The position numbers were made by a program, and so were the translations under genes. A stretch of 64,000 bases of DNA, taken from the IMG/VR virus record IMGVR_UViG_3300027996_003878. One strand, given 5' to 3'. The notes below the pieces were generated by a model. It saw only the letters and a program-made list of their open reading frames with translations, was not told where the DNA came from and ran no database searches. The stretch comes from a virus (taxonomy: Duplodnaviria > Caudoviricetes). Below are positions 2,742 to 55,518 of this stretch, in pieces; within the stretch, counting starts at the first letter, position 1; every line of letters begins with the position of its first letter.

Positions 2742-3189
2742 GTGAATATGAAAATTAACAATATTACAAAGCTAGCAGATCAATTCTTACGAATTGCAAA
2801 ATCTGCATCGACTGAAGGCAAATACAAACACATCAACTTCGTGCCCCCTAAGTCTGTCGCAAAAGAGGCGGAGGAGGGTCTTAAATTACGCCAAATGGCC
2901 GGCGGAAAAGGCGGCCTGTCAGTAAGTCAGGCAAAAAAAGAAGGCGTTGGAAGCGGACCAGCGAGCTGTAAATTTAAAAAATAGAGACAAATTAAGCCCT
3001 AAGACTGTAAGAAGAATGAAGGCATTCTTTGACAGGCATCAAAAAAATAAAAAAATTGATAAAGGAAAAAAGCCACATGAAGATAGAGGATACGTAGCTC
3101 ACAAGTTATGGGGCGGTGATTCCGGGTACAGATGGGCAAAAAAAATAGTAAGACAAATGAACGCAGCTGACAATAAAGATAATAAATAA
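2742..3189 (+). pseudogene. Basic phage protein split by a frameshift near 2958 (ORFs 2742-2984 and 2947-3189)
   Basis: Joined reading PPKSVAKEAEEGLKLR...GVGSG-x-QRAVNL...LSPKTVRRMKAFFDRH...LWGGDSGYRWA resembles a common phage family; only one base lies between GGA(2955-57) and CAG(2959-61). Confidence 0.75.
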
Positions 3190-3191
3190 TT

Positions 3192-4001
3192 ATGAATAAC
3201 GAAAACATAAATAAACTTGCTGACCTATTTTTTTTAAAAACAACAGCGAAGAAGAAAAAAAAGAAGAAGAACATACCAAAAAACAAAAAACTTTGGGAAA
3301 AGGCCAAGTCATTAGCTAAATCCAAATTTGATGTATACCCTAGCATCTACGCGAATGCTTGGGCTGCCAAATGGTACAAAAGTAAGGGCGGCGAATGGAA
3401 AAAAGGGTATGCGGCTGATGACGGCCTTGCGGCAGACGATTACCATACTAACGATCAACCACGAGGCCTCTACCAAGATAATAATGAAGTTTTTGAAAAC
3501 GATAAAGGCAAGCTAGAATCTCACGGAAAAGTATATTCTGACAGCGGGCTTGGCAGATGGTTTGCAGAAGAGTGGGTTAATATTGGAAAGAAAGAAAAAG
3601 GTAAGCACCCACCATGCGGCAGAGATGACGCAGATGAAGGAGGGTATCCAAAGTGCGTTCCAAAATCAAAAGCAAAAAAAATGTCTAAAAAACAAAAAGA
3701 ATCAGCTACGAGAAGAAAAAGAAAAGTAGAGCGATCTAAAAAGAGAAAAGATAAAAAGCCACATTTTGTAAGCACAAAAAAAGCTGGACAAGAAACAATA
3801 GTAAAAGAGCATAAAAATGCTGAAAAATCTTACATGTCAAAAAGAAACTTAGAGAGCATTCACAGATACAGTCGCAAACTTATGGAAATGCTTAACGAAA
3901 AAGATGATATGCCTGATTAGTGCGATGACAAACTCTCCGTCGCAAAAAGTCTACTTAGCGACGTTTATAATTATATAGCTAACGAAAAAAACATACGCTA
4001 A
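3192..4001 (+). CDS. Lys-rich phage protein (DUF5872-like modules) with an internal TAG at 3918-3920
   Basis: YPSIYANAWAAKWYK, GLGRWFAEEWV, YPKCVP; frame continues 26 codons past TAG (DMPD*CDDKLSVAKSLLSDVYNY) to TAA 3999-4001. Confidence 0.75.
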
Positions 4002-46416: not shown

Positions 46417-47607
46417 TTAATTAACGTTATTTATATTATTTTTACTTGGAACATCATTGATTGTCTGATGTCTGCCTGGGCCTACAGAAACCAAGCAGAC
46501 GTCAATATTTAATTCTTCTGAGATATATTTGATAAATAATTTTGCATTTTTTGGAAGATCGTTAAAGCTTTTCACATTTGTAATGTCTTCCTTCCAACCA
46601 GGAAACGTAGTAAAGCTATTATCTCCAATAACTTTTGGTAAATTATCTAAGCAAGGATATTTATCATTATTATAATCGGTCGCCACTTTGATTTTATCAA
46701 AGCCAGACAAAACATCTAATTTTGTTATGGCTAGCTTTGTAATTCCATTAACCTCAACCGCATATCTCATTAAAGGCATATCCAGCCATCCCACTTTGCG
46801 AGGTCGGCCTGTAACAGAGCCAAACTCATGACCAACGGTTTGTAGGTGCGATGCAAGCTCTCCTTTTATTTCGGATGGGAACGGACCCTCGCCTACTCTT
46901 GTCACATAGGCCTTTGTTATTCCGATAACCTCGTCTATTAAGGTTGGCCCAACACCAGCTCCAGTACAGGCCCCGCCAGCGGTAGCGTTAGAGGAAGTTA
47001 CAAAAGGGTAAGTTCCAAGGTCAACGTCTAGCAAGGTGCCTTGAGCGCCCTCAAACATCACCTTTTTATTTTCTTTTATATTGTTATTTATAATTCTTGG
47101 AATATCAGCTTTTGAAAATCTTTTCAAATTATCAATAACTTCTTGTTTGAAATTATAATTATTATTTTTAATAATATCTAGTACACGAATTCCATTTCGA
47201 CTTATTTTATCTTCGTAGGTAGGTCCAATGCCTTTTTTCGTAGTTCCAATTTTAGAATTTTTATTTATGTCACTTTCAATATGCTTTGGAAGAATGACGT
47301 GAGCGCGATCTGACAACATCAACCTACCCTCAAGCGTTAAGCCTAACCTTTCAAGGCCCTTCACCTCTTCGTAAAAGACGTTAGGGTCAATGACCATTCC
47401 ATGACCCAAAATGCAAGTAGTATGAGGATGAAGTATGCCAGACGGTATTAATCGCAAGATAGTCTTTTCACCATCCACATTTAATGTATGACCTGCATTA
47501 GGGCCTCCGGCGTATCGAACTACAATGTCGTAATCCTTTGCATAAAAATCAACGATTTTGCCCTTACCTTCGTCACCAAAAGCACAACCTACAAAAACAG
47601 TATTCAT
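46417..47607 (-). CDS. purA: Adenylosuccinate synthetase
   Basis: GDEGKGK, GGPNAGHT, GTTKKGIGP, EGAQGTLLD.DLGTYPFVTSS, TRVG.GPFP, VTGRPR, TKLD. Confidence 0.97.
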   Translation of the reverse strand: MNTVFVGCAFGDEGKGKIVDFYAKDYDIVVRYAGGPNAGHTLNVDGEKTILRLIPSGILHPHTTCILGHGMVIDPNVFYEEVKGLERLGLTLEGRLMLSDRAHVILPKHIESDINKNSKIGTTKKGIGPTYEDKISRNGIRVLDIIKNNNYNFKQEVIDNLKRFSKADIPRIINNNIKENKKVMFEGAQGTLLDVDLGTYPFVTSSNATAGGACTGAGVGPTLIDEVIGITKAYVTRVGEGPFPSEIKGELASHLQTVGHEFGSVTGRPRKVGWLDMPLMRYAVEVNGITKLAITKLDVLSGFDKIKVATDYNNDKYPCLDNLPKVIGDNSFTTFPGWKEDITNVKSFNDLPKNAKLFIKYISEELNIDVCLVSVGPGRHQTINDVPSKNNINNVN

Positions 47608-48710: not shown

Positions 48711-49103
48711 TCAATAGCCAACACCCTCAAGCCACTTTACTTCCATTACTTCTGCTGGAAGAATTTTTTTATTTCTTAACACTGACGTCATTTTAGGCCC
48801 AAAGGTAAACTGAAGATCTTTTTTTAGCATAGGATTGTCGCCAGCTGTTAGCTTAATTTCAACGTCTCCTGAAGGCGATACCATAAGGCTTGCAGAAAAT
48901 TTTCCTTCATAATTTATTTTATCTAAAATACCAAATATTTTGTTAGCCACACCGCCCTGAAGATCAAAGGGACTTCCTCCCCACAATCCAGCGTTATCTA
49001 GTGCTTTTTGGATATCAGCGGGTTGAGCGGAAGATGCGATTTCGGCTTTCTTCTGAAATTTATTTGCATAACTTAAAATTTTATTAGTAGATAAAAGTCC
49101 CAT
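48711..49103 (-). CDS. Hypothetical protein carrying the shared N-terminal leader motif
   Basis: NKILSYANKFQKKA. Confidence 0.7.
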   Translation of the reverse strand: MGLLSTNKILSYANKFQKKAEIASSAQPADIQKALDNAGLWGGSPFDLQGGVANKIFGILDKINYEGKFSASLMVSPSGDVEIKLTAGDNPMLKKDLQFTFGPKMTSVLRNKKILPAEVMEVKWLEGVGY

Positions 49104-49117
49104 TACTTTATAATTAA

Positions 49118-50428
49118 TTATTGGTTAATTTGGTTAAATATTTTTTTGTAATTATTATCAATTTCAACTATGTTATTTGCGTGCTTTGAGTCAATTCCTC
49201 GTAATGATCTATTGTGGTAATTTAATTTAAACTCTGTAAACTTCAAAGCATTTGCGGTTGATATAACTACAACAGTGTCATCTGTCTTGATATGAGTATT
49301 TAAGCTTTTTTTAAGAGATGCAAACCCAACGGCAGTATGTGGGCATGTATAAAACCCACATTGGTCTACCTGCGAGGCAATGTCACTTAACTCTTGATCT
49401 GTTGATTGCTCTACAATTCCATTTGTTTCCTGCAAGGCGATTGCGGCTCGATCAGCGGATACAGGATCGCCAATTTGAATAGCTGTAGCTAACGTTTTTT
49501 TTGCTTTAATCGGCTTTAAATCACTTTTATTTTTATAGGATTGGTAAAGAGGATTTGCGCTAGCTGACTGAGCGAGTAACAGTCTAGGCATCTTGTCGGT
49601 ACAGCCAAGGTCTTTCAGCATCTTGAACCCTTTATACAAGGCATAGCTGTTGCCTAAATTACCGCTTGGTAATACTATCCAGTCTGGAACGACACCTTGT
49701 AAACTATCATAAATCTCAAATGCAATTGACTTTTGACCTTCAATGCGTAAGCAGTTTTTTGAATTAGCGAGGTAAATATGGTCATCATTGGCTAATTTTT
49801 GTATTAGCTTCATGCATCCATCGAAATCTGTATCTACAGCAAAAACCTTTGATCCTGTGGCTATTGGCTGAATTAATTGAGCCTTCGAAACTTTGTTACG
49901 AGGTAATAAAATTATAGAGGGAATTCCAGCAATTGCCGCATAAAGAGACAAAGAGGCAGATGTGTCGCCAGTAGAGGCACAACCGATAGCTTTTATTTTT
50001 TTACCATTTTTTATAGCTTGCTTTACAGAAGAAACTAAAACAGTCATGCCAAGATCTTTAAAAGATCCAGTATAATTATTACCACATAATTTAACATAAA
50101 GATTTTTAATACCAAAAAGCTCTGACAAACGATTGGTCCTTATCAGAGGATTATTGCCTTCATGTGTTGTAATGATATTATCTGATAGAATATCTGGAAG
50201 CACTAACTCTTTGTACCGCCATACTCCAGAGTTCCTAAAATTTTCTCTTAAATGATTCTTATTTTTATTTTTTAGATTGTAAGCGGCGCAAAAATAATTA
50301 ATATTACTTATTCTATGACTTACATCCAGAAGACTGCCGCACTTTGGGCAATTATAGATAGTATCTTCAATCGAATAAGACTCTTCGCTACATTGCTTTA
50401 AACATTTTAATTCACACAAGCGCCTCAT
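49118..50428 (-). CDS. thrC: Threonine synthase (PLP fold II)
   Basis: CPKCGSLLDV, GVWRY, EGNNPL, SFKDLG (PLP Lys), ASTGDTSAS, YLANS.N.LRIEGQK, PSGNLGN, TAIQIGDP. Confidence 0.93.
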   Translation of the reverse strand: MRRLCELKCLKQCSEESYSIEDTIYNCPKCGSLLDVSHRISNINYFCAAYNLKNKNKNHLRENFRNSGVWRYKELVLPDILSDNIITTHEGNNPLIRTNRLSELFGIKNLYVKLCGNNYTGSFKDLGMTVLVSSVKQAIKNGKKIKAIGCASTGDTSASLSLYAAIAGIPSIILLPRNKVSKAQLIQPIATGSKVFAVDTDFDGCMKLIQKLANDDHIYLANSKNCLRIEGQKSIAFEIYDSLQGVVPDWIVLPSGNLGNSYALYKGFKMLKDLGCTDKMPRLLLAQSASANPLYQSYKNKSDLKPIKAKKTLATAIQIGDPVSADRAAIALQETNGIVEQSTDQELSDIASQVDQCGFYTCPHTAVGFASLKKSLNTHIKTDDTVVVISTANALKFTEFKLNYHNRSLRGIDSKHANNIVEIDNNYKKIFNQINQ

Positions 50429-51264: not shown

Positions 51265-51735
51265 TCAATCAAAAGGTCCGGGTTTAACCACATCTTTTTC
51301 GTCTAAAAATCTTCCCTCTGGACCCATTTCAAGTTCTTTTTGGTATTGACCCCAGGCCCTTGCCTCGAAAAGCGTGGCGTAGTTTGATAGAACATCCTTT
51401 AGAGGTAAGTTTTTTCCTAGCTCCTCTTTAATGTCCGAAGTATAATTTTTACCCTCTTGCTCAAGTAAAGTTTTGAATATTTTTTCAACTCTTGACAGTT
51501 GGTAGCGTTGGTTGTCTTTGTAGCGCCCTAAGTCTTCGCCTACAGCTCTCTCTAAAGCCTCTCTTACCTTATTTGCGACGTTAGATGGGTTTAGGTCCAA
51601 AAGAGGCGCCATTGCCTTTCCAAAGTCCTGAGCCATCGTAAGCGCGGTCATTGTAAGATTGTTGGATGAACTTGCGGTCTTTAATTTCCATGCATTTGCT
51701 ATTTTGTATAGTTTAGATAAGTTATTTTTTGCCAT
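51265..51735 (-). CDS. Hypothetical protein with the shared leader motif (start MAKNN at 51735)
   Basis: SKLYKIANAWKLKTA. Confidence 0.7.
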   Translation of the reverse strand: MAKNNLSKLYKIANAWKLKTASSSNNLTMTALTMAQDFGKAMAPLLDLNPSNVANKVREALERAVGEDLGRYKDNQRYQLSRVEKIFKTLLEQEGKNYTSDIKEELGKNLPLKDVLSNYATLFEARAWGQYQKELEMGPEGRFLDEKDVVKPGPFD

Positions 51736-51799
51736 TTTTTTTCCTAGAGTCAATGCCCTTATATTCAGAGAAAGCGGACCCGCCTTCCAGCTATTTCAT

Positions 51800-53569
51800 T
51801 CATCCCTTAGACAGCTTAGGCCCCCAATAACCCCACTCCATTAAATCATCGCCTGCCCATCGTATATGCCTTAATGGAACTTCAAACTCTACTATGTGCC
51901 AGTCTTTTTCGCCTTCAGCGTGCTGCTCTGCGTAAGTCTTTGAAAGAGTTATCCAGTTTCCAGTATTAATCGTTGAACCTGCTGACTTTGGAAGTGCGCG
52001 ATAGATTATGACTTTCTTATCAGGCATGCCAATCCCTCTCTTTATCTTTGACCAAAATTCTTTAAGCTCATTTGGATATCCCGTATACCATTCTGGCTTT
52101 TGAAGTATGTCTCGCGGAAAATCATCTGTTTGACCGATTTCATGACCAGCAGGTCCCCACGCCGGCTGATGCTGCATTCGATAATCTTTATATTCTGACT
52201 CTAAATCATCCTTAGAATAAAGATCGGTTTTTGACTTGCTTTCTATTCCTAATATTTTATTTCGAATATTCTCTTTTATTTCATAATTTCTTACTGGACG
52301 CCAGCCTGCTATTGGGTTTAAATATTCAACTATGTCATTGTTTAGTCTGTAACGTTTGCCAGAATCTTCAATGATAGTTAAGTCAGCGCTAGCTGCTTTT
52401 AAATTCAATTCGTCAGCATTTAACTTTTCGACATCGTAAAGCTTCGCTCTTTGTACTTTAATCTCACCATCCTCATCAGGATTACCTTTGATTAAATCCC
52501 TTGGGTTATACTCAAAGGTTAATAGTAATTCCTGATCATCTGTCAAACCTGAGTAATAATCTAAAACAAATTTTTTAGAAGTGCCTAAATAGACGCCCTG
52601 CTTTGATTTAATTACTGAGCCGGGTTCTAGCTGGTAAATAAAATCACCGTCCATGAGGCTTTTAGCTTCTTCAGCGTTATCATCGTATTTAACGACTTTA
52701 TAGCCGAAATTAAGATCGCCTGCTGCTGCTTTTAGAAACTTACGAGCTATAACTAAAATATCAGAAGCTGTAAGTAGCAATTGCTCGTATTTTTTAGCCG
52801 CAGTTTCGCCAAAAGCTTTATTCAGCAAATACTCAAGAAACTTACCCTCTGGCTTTTTCTTGGTTAATTCTATTTGCTTTATTACTTTGTCTTTTGAAAC
52901 GCCAAACCTGCGCGATAGTAATTCTATTACTTTTTCTTTAGAGTAGCCAGGGTAAGAGACATTATAATCTAACTCTTCAATCTTTTGCTTTTTACCATAA
53001 GGCTGGTCTTTTGCCGGAATCGCTTCAAGCCCCAAGTTTAAAAACTCTTCACGCGAAAACCATTGGGCCTCTTTTCCATAAGGCTTGTATCGAATTGCTT
53101 TTATTTTACTAGGTGCAATTAAACCCCGTAATAAAGCTTGTGGCTCTGATTTTTGACTTAAAGTATCGCTTAAGTAGGGGCGGAAGCTTTCTGGAAATTT
53201 CCGATAGGCTAATTCTATCGCAGATTCAGCCCTCTGTCTGCCGTGAGGGTCATCTTCTCTTCCTATGTTGCCAGACCAATCTGTGCCGTGTAGATATTTT
53301 GCAGGAACTTGAAGTTTAATAATAACTTCTCCACGGTTAGAAAATCGATCTGCAAGATCTTCATTTGGAGATACAAATAAACCCTTATGCCGAGGACCAC
53401 CGTAATGTCTTGATTTTACCTCATTTGCATCAAACCCATTAATCATTTCATGCAAATGAGATAAGCTGGTACCATGGTAAACTACTAGCTCATCATCACT
53501 CTTTAACTTGCTATACTCCATTGAGTATTTTAACAAGTTATTTGCGGCTTTATATAACTTCGACCTCAT
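51800..53569 (-). CDS. Multidomain (polyvalent-type) protein with three ADP-ribosyltransferase-like domains
   Basis: YHGT...GLFVS; GYK...GVYLGT...GEI; IYRALP...GNWITLS..YA...EWGY. Confidence 0.7.
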   Translation of the reverse strand: MRSKLYKAANNLLKYSMEYSKLKSDDELVVYHGTSLSHLHEMINGFDANEVKSRHYGGPRHKGLFVSPNEDLADRFSNRGEVIIKLQVPAKYLHGTDWSGNIGREDDPHGRQRAESAIELAYRKFPESFRPYLSDTLSQKSEPQALLRGLIAPSKIKAIRYKPYGKEAQWFSREEFLNLGLEAIPAKDQPYGKKQKIEELDYNVSYPGYSKEKVIELLSRRFGVSKDKVIKQIELTKKKPEGKFLEYLLNKAFGETAAKKYEQLLLTASDILVIARKFLKAAAGDLNFGYKVVKYDDNAEEAKSLMDGDFIYQLEPGSVIKSKQGVYLGTSKKFVLDYYSGLTDDQELLLTFEYNPRDLIKGNPDEDGEIKVQRAKLYDVEKLNADELNLKAASADLTIIEDSGKRYRLNNDIVEYLNPIAGWRPVRNYEIKENIRNKILGIESKSKTDLYSKDDLESEYKDYRMQHQPAWGPAGHEIGQTDDFPRDILQKPEWYTGYPNELKEFWSKIKRGIGMPDKKVIIYRALPKSAGSTINTGNWITLSKTYAEQHAEGEKDWHIVEFEVPLRHIRWAGDDLMEWGYWGPKLSKG

Positions 53570-53615
53570 GCCTTAATAAGAAATTAAGCAATGAAGTAAT
53601 ATAAAATTAAAATTA

Positions 53616-53864
53616 CTAAGGCATTATTAATGATATTCCAGATTTCTTCGGAATATTCGGGCGATCATCGGATAAATCCAGGTAACAAAGACCCCCGCAC
53701 TGACCGCACTCTCCTGCCGGAACCTCTTGTCCAGGACTAATACGATTCCAAAGGTAAGGGATGTTGCTCATTTTAATCTCTAAATCATCCTCATAACCAG
53801 ACCAATCGCAAGAAAAACACTTTACTTTACTCATCAATAATCTCGTCGCTGCTGCCAAAGGCAT
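53616..53864 (-). CDS. Small double-CxxC protein
   Basis: CFSC...PAGECGQCG. Confidence 0.65.
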   Translation of the reverse strand: MPLAAATRLLMSKVKCFSCDWSGYEDDLEIKMSNIPYLWNRISPGQEVPAGECGQCGGLCYLDLSDDRPNIPKKSGISLIMP

Positions 53865-53984
53865 AGGTATCCCTTTAACCTATTCATTCAAAAAAAAATG
53901 TCAATCTTTTTTTCTTTTTATGCCAAATAACGTTATTTTTTAAATTTTATTAAAAGAATTTAATTGCATCTTTAAAATATTTTT

Positions 53985-54608
53985 TTACAAGATATGAGAA
54001 TATCTCCTTAAAAGAAGTTTACGAAACGCGACTCCAGCTAACTTATTTTGATCTTTAGACTCTAAGTCTGCGATTAAACAAGAAGTATTAAAAGACTCTA
54101 TAAATTCATCTTTTTCATTAAAATGACCAACTTCATGTTCTAAAAATTTACGAAATCCTTCACGCTCTTGCTCGCTCATGTTTTTACAAATATAAACAAT
54201 ATCGCTATTATCTTTTGCCCTGGTAGATGCAAGTTTTAAGTACAATAATTGATTCCTACCGAGAACGGGAAGGCCTAGAAAGCTTCCCCTATCTTTATAA
54301 AAAAAATCTTCGTGAGGTTCTGAAAAAATAAAATCAACATCAGCATCATTAAAGATTGTTGTAATTCCATCACGACCAGGCATTGAAAGTGGCCGAGTGT
54401 CAAAAAGCTCCTCTAATTTGCTTCTTGATGAGGCAGGTACAATAAAATCAATATCGCCTGTATCTCGTGGACTTGACCAGCGCGCAACCGCTATCCCGCC
54501 GATAACTGCATAGTTAATATTGTTCTCATTTAAAATGTCAATGATGCCCTTGCCAACCTCTGGAAGGTCTTTGAGAATTCTTTGGGCCTTTAATTCATTG
54601 TTATTCAT
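53985..54608 (-). CDS. Pol-beta-superfamily nucleotidyltransferase (MNT/AbiEii-like)
   Basis: YAVIGGIAV...PRDTGDIDFIV...YLKLASTRAKDNSDI. Confidence 0.85.
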   Translation of the reverse strand: MNNNELKAQRILKDLPEVGKGIIDILNENNINYAVIGGIAVARWSSPRDTGDIDFIVPASSRSKLEELFDTRPLSMPGRDGITTIFNDADVDFIFSEPHEDFFYKDRGSFLGLPVLGRNQLLYLKLASTRAKDNSDIVYICKNMSEQEREGFRKFLEHEVGHFNEKDEFIESFNTSCLIADLESKDQNKLAGVAFRKLLLRRYSHIL

Positions 54609-54715: not shown

Positions 54716-55042
54716 ATGAAATATTTAATTAATTTGTTTAAGTGGATTAAGCGCAAAATTAAGCACAAATTAAGCCATTTGTCTTGGAATTATGTGAAAG
54801 AAACATTCAAGAAGCACGGGCTTGCCCTCGTTGTTATTTTTATAATATGGGAATTATTGGAAGATGTATTTTTTCCTGTCCTTTTTATTTGGCTGGGAAA
54901 AAATATTAATCCATGGTTTTATACTGGAGCACCGCTAAGTTGGCTTCTTTGCCTGCACCCAATCGCAGTACCGCTGATTTGGGGGTTTTGGATTAAAATT
55001 TCTGGAAGTAAAGATCAAGTTAGCAATTTACATAAACATTGA
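54716..55042 (+). CDS. Small membrane protein
   Basis: Two to three hydrophobic segments. Confidence 0.65.
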   Translation: MKYLINLFKWIKRKIKHKLSHLSWNYVKETFKKHGLALVVIFIIWELLEDVFFPVLFIWLGKNINPWFYTGAPLSWLLCLHPIAVPLIWGFWIKISGSKDQVSNLHKH

Positions 55043-55518
55043 AATAAAGGCTCAGCATCTCTTGAGCCTCTTAATTTTTTTTCAAATAGCGGGTGCTCTT
55101 GACGGTACATTTCTAAAATTTTAGTATTTTTTGTAGATGATGCATGCCTAACATTTGCTAAGCGATCAGATGCCTTAATCAAAACTGCGCCTGGCACTAG
55201 AGGAATGAGCTTGTACGGCCTAGCTTTACGCTCCTCTCGGGTGTCTCCGGGGCCATCGGATACGGCATCTACAAGACTCGCAACACGTTCGCCAAAAAAG
55301 CCGTACAAATCAAAATAGGTCGCTTGGGTGTCTTCAATCACATCATGCAATAGACCTGCTCTTAATAAATCTCTATCGTGAATGTTAAATTCGATCATAA
55401 CATTGATAACATCAATCAAATGACAAATATAAGGTTTATCTCCATACATTTGATCGCCATGGCACTTAGTGGCAAATTTATACGCAGAAGTTAAAAACAA
55501 AGGAACATGATAAGTCAT
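55015..55518 (-). CDS. HD-domain hydrolase, RelA/SpoT small-alarmone-hydrolase (Mesh1-like) type
   Basis: FA..CH..Q...PYI.H..V, LLHDVIEDT, VASLVDAVSD, IKASDRLAN. Confidence 0.9.
   Translation of the reverse strand: MTYHVPLFLTSAYKFATKCHGDQMYGDKPYICHLIDVINVMIEFNIHDRDLLRAGLLHDVIEDTQATYFDLYGFFGERVASLVDAVSDGPGDTREERKARPYKLIPLVPGAVLIKASDRLANVRHASSTKNTKILEMYRQEHPLFEKKLRGSRDAEPLFQCLCKLLT

Follow-up and report, generated by a model that had tools for sequence, protein, structure and literature searches.

A giant-phage protein of stacked candidate ADP-ribosyltransferase modules, separated by short tags that recur in head proteins

Anatomy of the P0001 protein

The window analysed here is the whole 64,000-nucleotide stretch of DNA from the IMG/VR virus record IMGVR_UViG_3300027996_003878 (Duplodnaviria; Caudoviricetes), which comes from an uncultured marine giant (jumbo) phage and has a guanine plus cytosine (GC) content of 34%. 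The subject of this study is one open reading frame (ORF) on its minus strand, at 51800..53569, and the 589-residue product (67.7 kDa), P0001. The original prediction had read it as a chain of three ADP-ribosyltransferase (ART)-like domains with linkers that echo an N-terminal leader, packaged as a precursor and cut into three effectors of different ART clades. The minus-strand translation bears out the ORF and the three-module anatomy, and the motifs lie at the residues that had been given for them: YHGT at 31–34, GLFVS at 63–67 and EPQ at 142–144 in domain 1; GYK at 289–291, GVYLGT at 325–330 and GEI at 368–370 in domain 2; YRMQH at 463–467, IYRALP at 522–527, GNWITLS..YA at 537–547 and EWGY at 578–581 in domain 3; and the linker ends ...ARKFLKAAA at 283 and ...LNLKAASA at 395. 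From the N- to the C-terminus, the chain consists of a leader, a first module (an H-type ART with a helical extension), a junction tag, a second module of ~100 residues, another junction tag, and a third module made of a small beta domain and an R-S-E-type ART-fold domain (Table 1). The largest of the metagenome contigs with public gene calls for the same 589-residue product is ~296 kb long.

Table 1. Features of P0001 and of other leader-bearing genes in the window
Feature	Position	Strand	Basis or remark
Whole ORF P0001	51800..53569	-	589 aa; same product in public gene calls of 20 contigs
N-terminal leader, aa 1–16, MRSKLYKAANNLLKYS	53522..53569	-	Two Lys-x-Ala/Ser units; strict tag at residue 5
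Domain 1, ART-fold core, aa 20–175	53045..53512	-	Structure model, fold matches, 43-homologue alignment
Helical extension of the domain 1 module, aa 176–268	52766..53044	-	WYSRxEFLxLGL..., kept with domain 1 in most homologues
Junction tag 1, aa 269–286, SDILVIARKFLKAAAGDL	52712..52765	-	Strict tag at 278
Domain 2, aa 287–383	52421..52711	-	Candidate minimal ART: K291, G325-VYLGTS, E369
Junction tag 2, aa 384–397, NADELNLKAASADL	52379..52420	-	KAASAD, as at an internal site of the protease protein
333-nt cassette (111 codons, K280–L390 in one register)	52400..52732	-	Absent from L007 (protein and DNA comparison)
Small beta-rich domain, aa 398–445, upstream of domain 3	52235..52378	-	Model: four strands and a helix
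Domain 3, aa 455–589	51803..52207	-	phrog_2579, 32-sequence alignment, model, fold matches
Downstream leader-bearing gene, 156 aa from ATG, leader MAKNNLSKLYKIANAWKLKTASS	51265..51735	-	Same leader
130-aa gene, related leader NKILSYANKFQKKAEIASS	48711..49103	-	Leader comparison
Leader-bearing gene, ITKLADQFLRIAKSA	2742..2984	+	Leader comparison, strict-tag scan
Leader-bearing gene, INKLADLFFLKTTA	3192..3920	+	Leader comparison, strict-tag scan

As the marks of an ART we took a split beta-sheet fold and a catalytic triad on strands 1, 2 and 5, reading H-Y-E/D or R-S-E. The AlphaFold model of domain 1 has a predicted local distance difference test (pLDDT) score of 88.7 overall and mostly >90 in the core. 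H32, T34, H61, G63, F65, E142 and Q144 are invariant in the 43-sequence alignment, and the model places H32 on strand 1 (27–34), F65 on strand 2 (64–67) and E142 directly before the strand 145–147. The putative triad reads H-F-E, with F65 where the canonical strand-2 residue is Y. The structural matches of the model are nearly all ARTs: Foldseek gave TreTu (probability 0.98, E 0.018), and VIA-align gave TreX (Z 6.8 over 107 residues, root-mean-square deviation (rmsd) 4.5), Tpt1 (Z 6.2, 94 residues, rmsd 3.0), pertussis S1 (6.2), Scabin (6.0) and DarT (5.2). We are confident that domain 1, as modelled, has an ART fold of the H type. The ART-PolyVal family (Tox-ART-HYD2 clade) has been defined as H-Y-D (PMC5512222), and domain 1, being H-F-E, is taken as an ART-fold relative and not as a member. 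Against membership speaks also the sub-threshold score of the Pfam profile PF18760 (18.6 bits against a cut-off of 31.2, profile positions 7–65 only), which matched no more than 5 of the 43 homologues at E<=0.01. The extension that follows, with helices at 211–284 in the model, gave only unspecific helical matches in VIA-align and a weak match to DUF6840 in Pfam.

Domain 3 matches phrog_2579, "ParB C-terminal domain", with E 1.4e-28, and no Pfam or NCBIfam family matched it. Its relatives are proteins of Mycobacterium and Gordonia phages, with 32–36% identity to the mycobacteriophage proteins. In the 32-sequence alignment H467, R524, G537, W539, Y546 and E578 are invariant, S543 is conserved in at least 90% of the sequences and H550 is nearly invariant. 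The model (pLDDT >90) has strands at 519–527, 539–541 and 579–581 and a helix at 544–552; strand 1 carries R524, S543 comes at the end of strand 2 with the helix after it, and E578 stands just ahead of a strand. This fits the R-S-E arrangement, in which Arg is on strand 1, Ser ends strand 2 and Glu begins strand 5. VIA-align matched it best with KptA (Z 5.7, 76 residues, rmsd 2.9) and domain 4 of CNFy (Z 5.0, 84 residues, rmsd 2.8), followed by TreX (4.2), Arr (3.9), pertussis S1 (3.9), diphtheria toxin (3.5) and Scabin (3.3), with PARP13, PltA, C3 and HopU1 as further ART rows. Of the rows that cover domain 3 (model residues 190–310), almost all are ART folds, and these represent 10 or more ART families. 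In Foldseek the best-scoring rows are likewise ARTs, though weak (E 0.1–2), and the structure matches in the Atlas, with template-modelling (TM) scores of 0.45–0.49, include ADPrib_exo_Tox (TM 0.48) and NAD:arginine ART. The model and its matches point to an ART-fold domain with an R-S-E arrangement. In this domain as in domain 1, the single Z values are too modest to carry the assignment, which rests on the consistency of the matches. The "ParB" name of PHROG 2579, to which the Mycobacterium phage proteins Myrna gp78 and Cjw1 gp127 belong together with domain 3, comes from fusions to ParB, whereas its fold and conserved residues suggest an ART-like enzyme. The small beta-rich domain in front of it is modelled with pLDDT 87–94, gave only weak unspecific fold matches (Z ~3), and accompanies domain 3 in the relative P0056.

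Domain 2 is possibly a minimal ART in which Lys replaces His or Arg, as judged from its residues. A core-motif order is common to domains 1, 2 and 3: Y-[H/K/R]; G-x-aromatic-h...S and then a helix; h-h-h-x-h-x-[VY]-[PN]; and E-h. Two relatives only were detected, P0131 and P0024, with 38% identity and 26 invariant columns; the domain is fused to a domain-3-like domain in P0131 and to an ART-PolyVal-like domain in P0024. Word-index searches with domain 2 alone against proteins of longer or near lengths returned nothing beyond the query, tblastn against cultured phages returned nothing, a scan of IMG/VR with the three-sequence alignment found no relatives, and Pfam gave no matches at E<=10. Because these searches were empty, the alignment stayed at three sequences, and the model obtained from it (pLDDT <50) is unusable. 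Among the language-model feature neighbours of domain 2 in the Atlas, the nearest named clusters are PARP, Arr-ms and Tox-ART-HYD1 (0.91–0.92), every one an ART family. Profile–profile comparison by hhalign was not significant for domain 2 with domain 1 (E 0.099), for domain 2 with domain 3 (E 0.29), or for domain 3 with domain 1 (E 0.015, 3% probability, aligned over strand 2, helix and strand 3). Since none of these comparisons was significant, sequence gives no proof of a common ancestry of the three domains.

All three domains had been called ARTs, with structure prediction of each domain proposed as the check. The call holds for domains 1 and 3, where models, fold matches and conserved residues agree on the ART fold, and it stays tentative for domain 2, whose model is unusable. 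Domains 1 and 3 differ in catalytic configuration, H-type in the one and R-S-E-type in the other. An NCBIfam scan of P0001 found no matches, a sequence search of solved structures with the whole protein or the domain 3 profile returned nothing meaningful, and the Pfam, PHROGs and NCBIfam results include no peptidase family; a peptidase is frequent and not obligatory in the polyvalent class of phage proteins discussed below.

A short tag shared with head proteins

In the window the loose motif h-x-K-x-[AS] is so common that it says little, and therefore a stricter six-residue form, [LIVMF].K[VILFYAM]A[DNASG], was used and is called the strict tag here. Expected numbers were obtained by shuffling within each protein, which controls for composition. 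P0001 carries the strict tag at residues 5 and 278. The predicted echo of the leader (SKLYKAANNLLKYS) in the linkers was confirmed above chance, the strict form being present in the leader and in linker 1. The 94 ORFs of the window contain 7 strict tags against 2.9 in shuffles, and five of the seven are N-terminal leaders or linker 1 of P0001. A leader-type sequence of ~16 residues, modelled in P0001 as a helix at 2–14 (pLDDT ~60), is common to five ORFs of the window with otherwise unrelated bodies, namely P0001 and the four other genes of Table 1. A short N-terminal signal on unrelated proteins, which we took as a mark of packaged cargo, is thus found on these five.

The head region of the phage, which includes the terminase, was reached by walking ~65 kb upstream of the window. 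In its 40 proteins the strict tag occurs 21 times, against 3.0±1.8 in shuffles (7-fold), and none of 500 shuffles reached 21; two thirds of the sites are within the first 75 residues. In contrast, 32 proteins of the replication region show no enrichment, with one strict tag where 1.2 are expected. The major capsid protein (334 residues, L020:17285-18289, phrog_2522, E 7e-79) has its sole strict tag at residue 22 (LTKYAA). Residue 55 is the site of one in the portal (phrog_16240, E 1e-55). A protein of 1199 residues with a head-maturation-protease domain (phrog_18299, E 2e-13) has strict tags at 34, 598 (FVKAASADG) and 662. The P0001 junctions, FLKAAAGDL and NLKAASADL, are nearly identical to FVKAASADG, and over ~135 kb KAA[AS] is found in real ORFs only in P0001 (twice), the protease protein (twice) and two others. 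Because the same tag stands on the N-terminus of the capsid protein, on the portal and inside the protease protein, packaging of P0001 and cutting by the prohead protease are a reasonable proposal.

Some further observations concern these head proteins. The protease protein is encoded at L019:10910-14509, ~50 kb upstream of the window, with its protease domain N-terminal, at residues ~106–217; it is perhaps a self-cutting polyprotein, made of protease and scaffold or of protease and cargo. A cut at the capsid tag, LTKYAA↓ILEDN, would give a short propeptide of ~26 residues. The herpesvirus assemblin, the fold of which is common to phage prohead proteases, cuts at (V/L/I)-x-A↓S and Y-[VL]-[KQ]-A↓S. 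The tag sequences F-V-K-A-A-S and L-K-A-A-S look like this Ala↓Ser type, a resemblance of short motifs only.

Variation among relatives and gene neighbourhood

Gain or loss of modules at the tags was observed directly. The relative P0002 (478 residues, locus L007) is 98% identical to P0001 and lacks exactly residues 280–390. The missing stretch is domain 2, bounded exactly by the two tags, and in the DNA the cassette is bounded by a 10-nt direct repeat, TAAAAGCAGC, which codes for LKAA of both linkers. In L007, the module of the 156-residue leader-bearing gene forms the C-terminus of a 705-residue HEAT-repeat fusion, with the leader internal. The comparison of L007:2583-6608 with window positions 51265–53985 shows a hypervariable spot between near-identical phages. 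L007 is also without the 82-residue zinc-ribbon-like gene (window 53616–53864), and it has 1.6 kb of extra DNA, coding for the HEAT/LRV-repeat N-terminal part that is fused to the 156-residue module; the breakpoint in the window is 51751/51752.

Leader-like motifs are found in distant homologues as well. They stand at the alignment position of junction 1 in P0028, P0033, P0022, P0017 and P0005; in P0027, P0073 and P0008 the tag is internal and directly ahead of domain 1; and such motifs also directly precede domain 1, domain 3, ART-PolyVal or DUF5661. Among 163 homologues, the GC-rich form [RKQ][VI]A.[RK][YFW][LIAV] was counted 12 times at N-termini and junctions against 0.54 expected. Because stand-alone domain 1 proteins stop before the junction motif, the motif reads as the leader of the next module. 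When the window is scanned with a hidden Markov model of 20 RVAxRYL-type leaders, taken from GC-rich homologues, its Lys-type leaders are not recovered, and treating the two motifs as one kind is an analogy that rests on position and on a shared basic-hydrophobic-Ala-small core. P0005 (528 residues, on a 530-kb contig) has domain 1, the junction motif QQKVASRWIE at 273 and then a genuine ART-PolyVal domain (52 bits); here too, ARTs of different types are stacked with a leader-like motif between them.

The modules are shared widely. Domain 3 occurs alone in proteins of 130–180 residues and within proteins of up to ~4000 residues, and domains 1 and 3 are each found also in multidomain proteins of 1000–4000 residues (2422 matches at E<=1e-3). 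Elsewhere domains 1, 2 and 3 are differently ordered and are accompanied by NUDIX, topoisomerase I, GNAT, ART-PolyVal and REC-like domains. With three to four modules, P0001 has what is expected of a polyvalent protein, that is, at least two effector domains that are shuffled among homologues. In another record, L008:564-3452 (IMGVR_UViG_3300045738_001673) encodes a polyvalent protein of >963 residues with a copy of domain 3 that is 72% identical to residues 459–589. This copy is flanked on both sides by a ~25-residue repeat, L-[LI]-KGGPYIGPRGGKWADAxHK[IV]PW, with a third repeat near the N-terminus, and the same repeat is present twice in P0057. Modules of the same kinds thus seem to be punctuated in another way, specific to that lineage; a literature search for the string PRGGKW found no paper.

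Around the P0001 gene lie an HD_4 hydrolase gene, a nucleotidyltransferase-like gene, small ORFs of unknown function and a gene for a PALP enzyme. Promoter and terminator scans gave the background level only, and megablast of the window against cultured phages gave no nucleotide matches. The nucleotidyltransferase-like gene (53985–54608, minus strand) encodes 207 residues with a weak AbiEii/nucleotidyltransferase-like N-terminus (Pfam E 0.029; phrog_1614 E 0.059); it is two genes upstream of the P0001 gene on the same strand, with only the 82-residue gene between. Also on the minus strand are an adenylosuccinate-synthetase homologue (46417–47607), the PALP (threonine-synthase-like) enzyme (49118–50428) and the HD_4 phosphohydrolase (55015–55518). 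The first matches phrog_1211 (E 7e-101), which PHROGs names "2-aminooxy adenylosuccinate synthetase" and which is PurZ-like, and the three genes may form a nucleotide or base-modification module. Within 0–25 kb upstream of the window, L012, L015 and L016 encode ribosomal protein S21, IF3, peptide deformylase and thioredoxin, as well as trigger factor, DnaJ, the DNA polymerase III alpha subunit and RecA.

Packaging, processing and chemistry of P0001

Iyer, Burroughs, Anand, de Souza and Aravind (2017) described the polyvalent proteins of phages and conjugative elements, in which ART is the commonest modifying domain and which they predicted to be packaged, injected and processed (PMC5512222). 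In phage T4 a short N-terminal targeting sequence brings the ART Alt into the prohead, and the prohead protease gp21 trims it at both termini (PMC5694885). Given these two precedents, the best reading of P0001 is a head-loaded polyvalent effector precursor that is cut at the tags into separate ART-type enzymes, to which we give a probability of about one half. The leader would carry the precursor into the assembling prohead, and the head protease would then cut at the tags into pieces of ~30, 12.5 and 23 kDa. These pieces would leave the capsid with the DNA and ADP-ribosylate different host targets with NAD+ early in infection. As each module carries its own tag, recombination at the tags could add, remove or join modules with packaging and cutting kept.

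P0001 could instead be packaged and injected uncut, with only the N-terminal leader at work, as a targeting helix, and the internal tags left as scars of fusion or as helical linkers. The leader that is internal in the 705-residue fusion of L007 and heads a separate gene in the window indicates that fusion or fission at leaders is recent and frequent, and the stand-alone domain 1 homologues that stop before the junction motif suggest that the motif belongs to the next module. Delivery of unprocessed polyvalent proteins is also on record for N4 vRNAP, ArdC and TraC1 (PMC5512222). We nevertheless regard this as unlikely, for the presence of a leader-like motif at the homologous junction in homologues of ~35–45% identity argues for a function and not a scar, and the KAASAD of the junction is identical to a site within the protease's own protein. 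It is more improbable still that P0001 is absent from the virion and acts as a cytoplasmic enzyme of host takeover or anti-defence, the tags being merely Lys/Ala-rich amphipathic helices of an AT-rich genome. T4 ModA and ModB are unpackaged ARTs (PMC5512222), the gene is far from the structural genes and beside the HD_4 hydrolase, the nucleotidyltransferase-like gene and small ORFs, and the tag motif is short. Against this, the strict tag is concentrated in head-region proteins and at N-terminal positions with the replication region at expectation, the shuffling within proteins takes care of composition, and five unrelated proteins of the window have the ~16-residue leader in common.

A different question is whether at least one "ART" domain does other chemistry, as an NADase, as an enzyme acting on RNA/DNA 2'-phosphate or modifying bases (KptA/Tpt1, DarT, Scabin), or as an inactive binder. 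This concerns the chemistry alone and is compatible with the head-loaded precursor. The best structural neighbours include the nucleic-acid-directed KptA/Tpt1, DarT and Scabin; domain 1 has F for the strand-2 Y and E for the D of ART-PolyVal (PMC5512222), domain 2 has K at strand 1, and domain 3 has the extra conserved H467 and H550. The candidate catalytic residues are, on the other side, invariant in 32–43 divergent homologues, which argues for activity of some kind, and we consider other chemistry a somewhat unlikely case.

Several points weigh against the head-loaded precursor itself. The phage is uncultured, and packaging and cleavage are read from its sequence. The P0001 gene is ~95 kb from the head genes, which are spread over distances of ~80–110 kb, and it does not lie beside virion or late genes, a position that we took as a mark of the polyvalent class. 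The start codon is not certain: a Shine–Dalgarno-like AAGG is just 1–2 nt 5' of the first ATG, and a start at M17 would drop the leader. As to the tags, junction tag 2 departs from the strict pattern, at position -2 only; the loose motif is barely enriched at the N-termini of the window (0.45 against 0.35 per 100 residues); P0001 taken alone has 3 h-x-K-x-A sites against 0.98 expected (P ~0.07); and the deletion variant is very recent (98% identity), so that retention of internal tags in P0001 is by itself no sign of selection. As to the domains, the fold-match Z values of 5.7–6.8 for domains 1 and 3 are below VIA-align's own security level, and with F for Y at strand 2 of domain 1 and K at the strand-1 position of domain 2 the activity could be altered or lost.

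P0001 resembles the polyvalent proteins in having several unrelated or repeated effector domains per chain that are shuffled among architectures. It differs from them in that it is small (589 residues), is without a zincin-like MPTase or other peptidase domain, has in domain 1 H-F-E instead of H-Y-D, below the Pfam threshold, and has an R-S-E-like domain 3; any processing would fall to the head protease, cutting at short tags that recur along the chain. In T4, gp21 matures both the capsid protein and Alt; in the present phage, the effector, the capsid N-terminus and the protease protein share a short tag. This tag is Lys-h-Ala-small and not h-x-Glu, unlike the L/I-x-E sites of gp21, and it lies between catalytic modules, so that the putative cuts would release several enzymes and not remove propeptides as in Alt. 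The giant phages phiKZ, 201phi2-1 and SPN3US pack many head ejection proteins, which a prohead protease (S/A/G-x-E) processes; the phage studied here differs from them in lineage and motif. Their ejection proteins have long propeptides that are cut at several sites of one motif, and the protease cuts itself (PMC10052503, PMC5694885). The phiKZ-type cuts described remove N-terminal propeptides, and these two papers give no example in which one chain yields three enzymes.

A polyprotein strategy had been called unusual for bacteriophages, which is overstated: multi-ART polyvalent proteins with up to 12 ART copies and predicted post-packaging processing have been described (PMC5512222), and gp21 cuts T4 Alt at its two ends (PMC5694885). 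Multi-ART polyvalent proteins and head-packaged ARTs are thus already known. New are the combination of different ART configurations in one chain, the R-S-E-like ART family without a Pfam model within polyvalent proteins, where none had been reported, and the direct evidence of module gain or loss at tags; apparently new is also the delegation of processing to the head protease by portable tags instead of a built-in peptidase.

A wider reading can be put forward tentatively, with a likelihood well short of even. The Lys-h-Ala-small tag would be a portable "load and cut" signal of phage-G-like giant phages, and P0001 a true effector polyprotein that releases three ARTs (H-type, Lys-type minimal and R-S-E-type) inside the capsid for co-injection. 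The effectors would evolve as exchangeable cassettes, with analogous punctuation elsewhere (RVAxRYL in GC-rich phages and the 25-residue KGGPYIGPRGGKWAD repeat in L008), and domain 3 would represent a large unrecognised family of phage ARTs.

In phages, well-studied mycobacteriophages among them, the domain 3 family forms hundreds of clusters at 50% identity, and its reading as an ART-like R-S-E enzyme gives a testable function for many "hypothetical" phage proteins. The shared tags offer a concrete, testable explanation of how a phage lacking a built-in peptidase domain might divide a cargo of several enzymes, and the insertions and deletions at these tags illustrate a way for cargo of this kind to evolve through the exchange of cassettes. 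With the tag as a guide, the injected proteome of an uncultured giant phage could also be predicted from nothing but its sequence.

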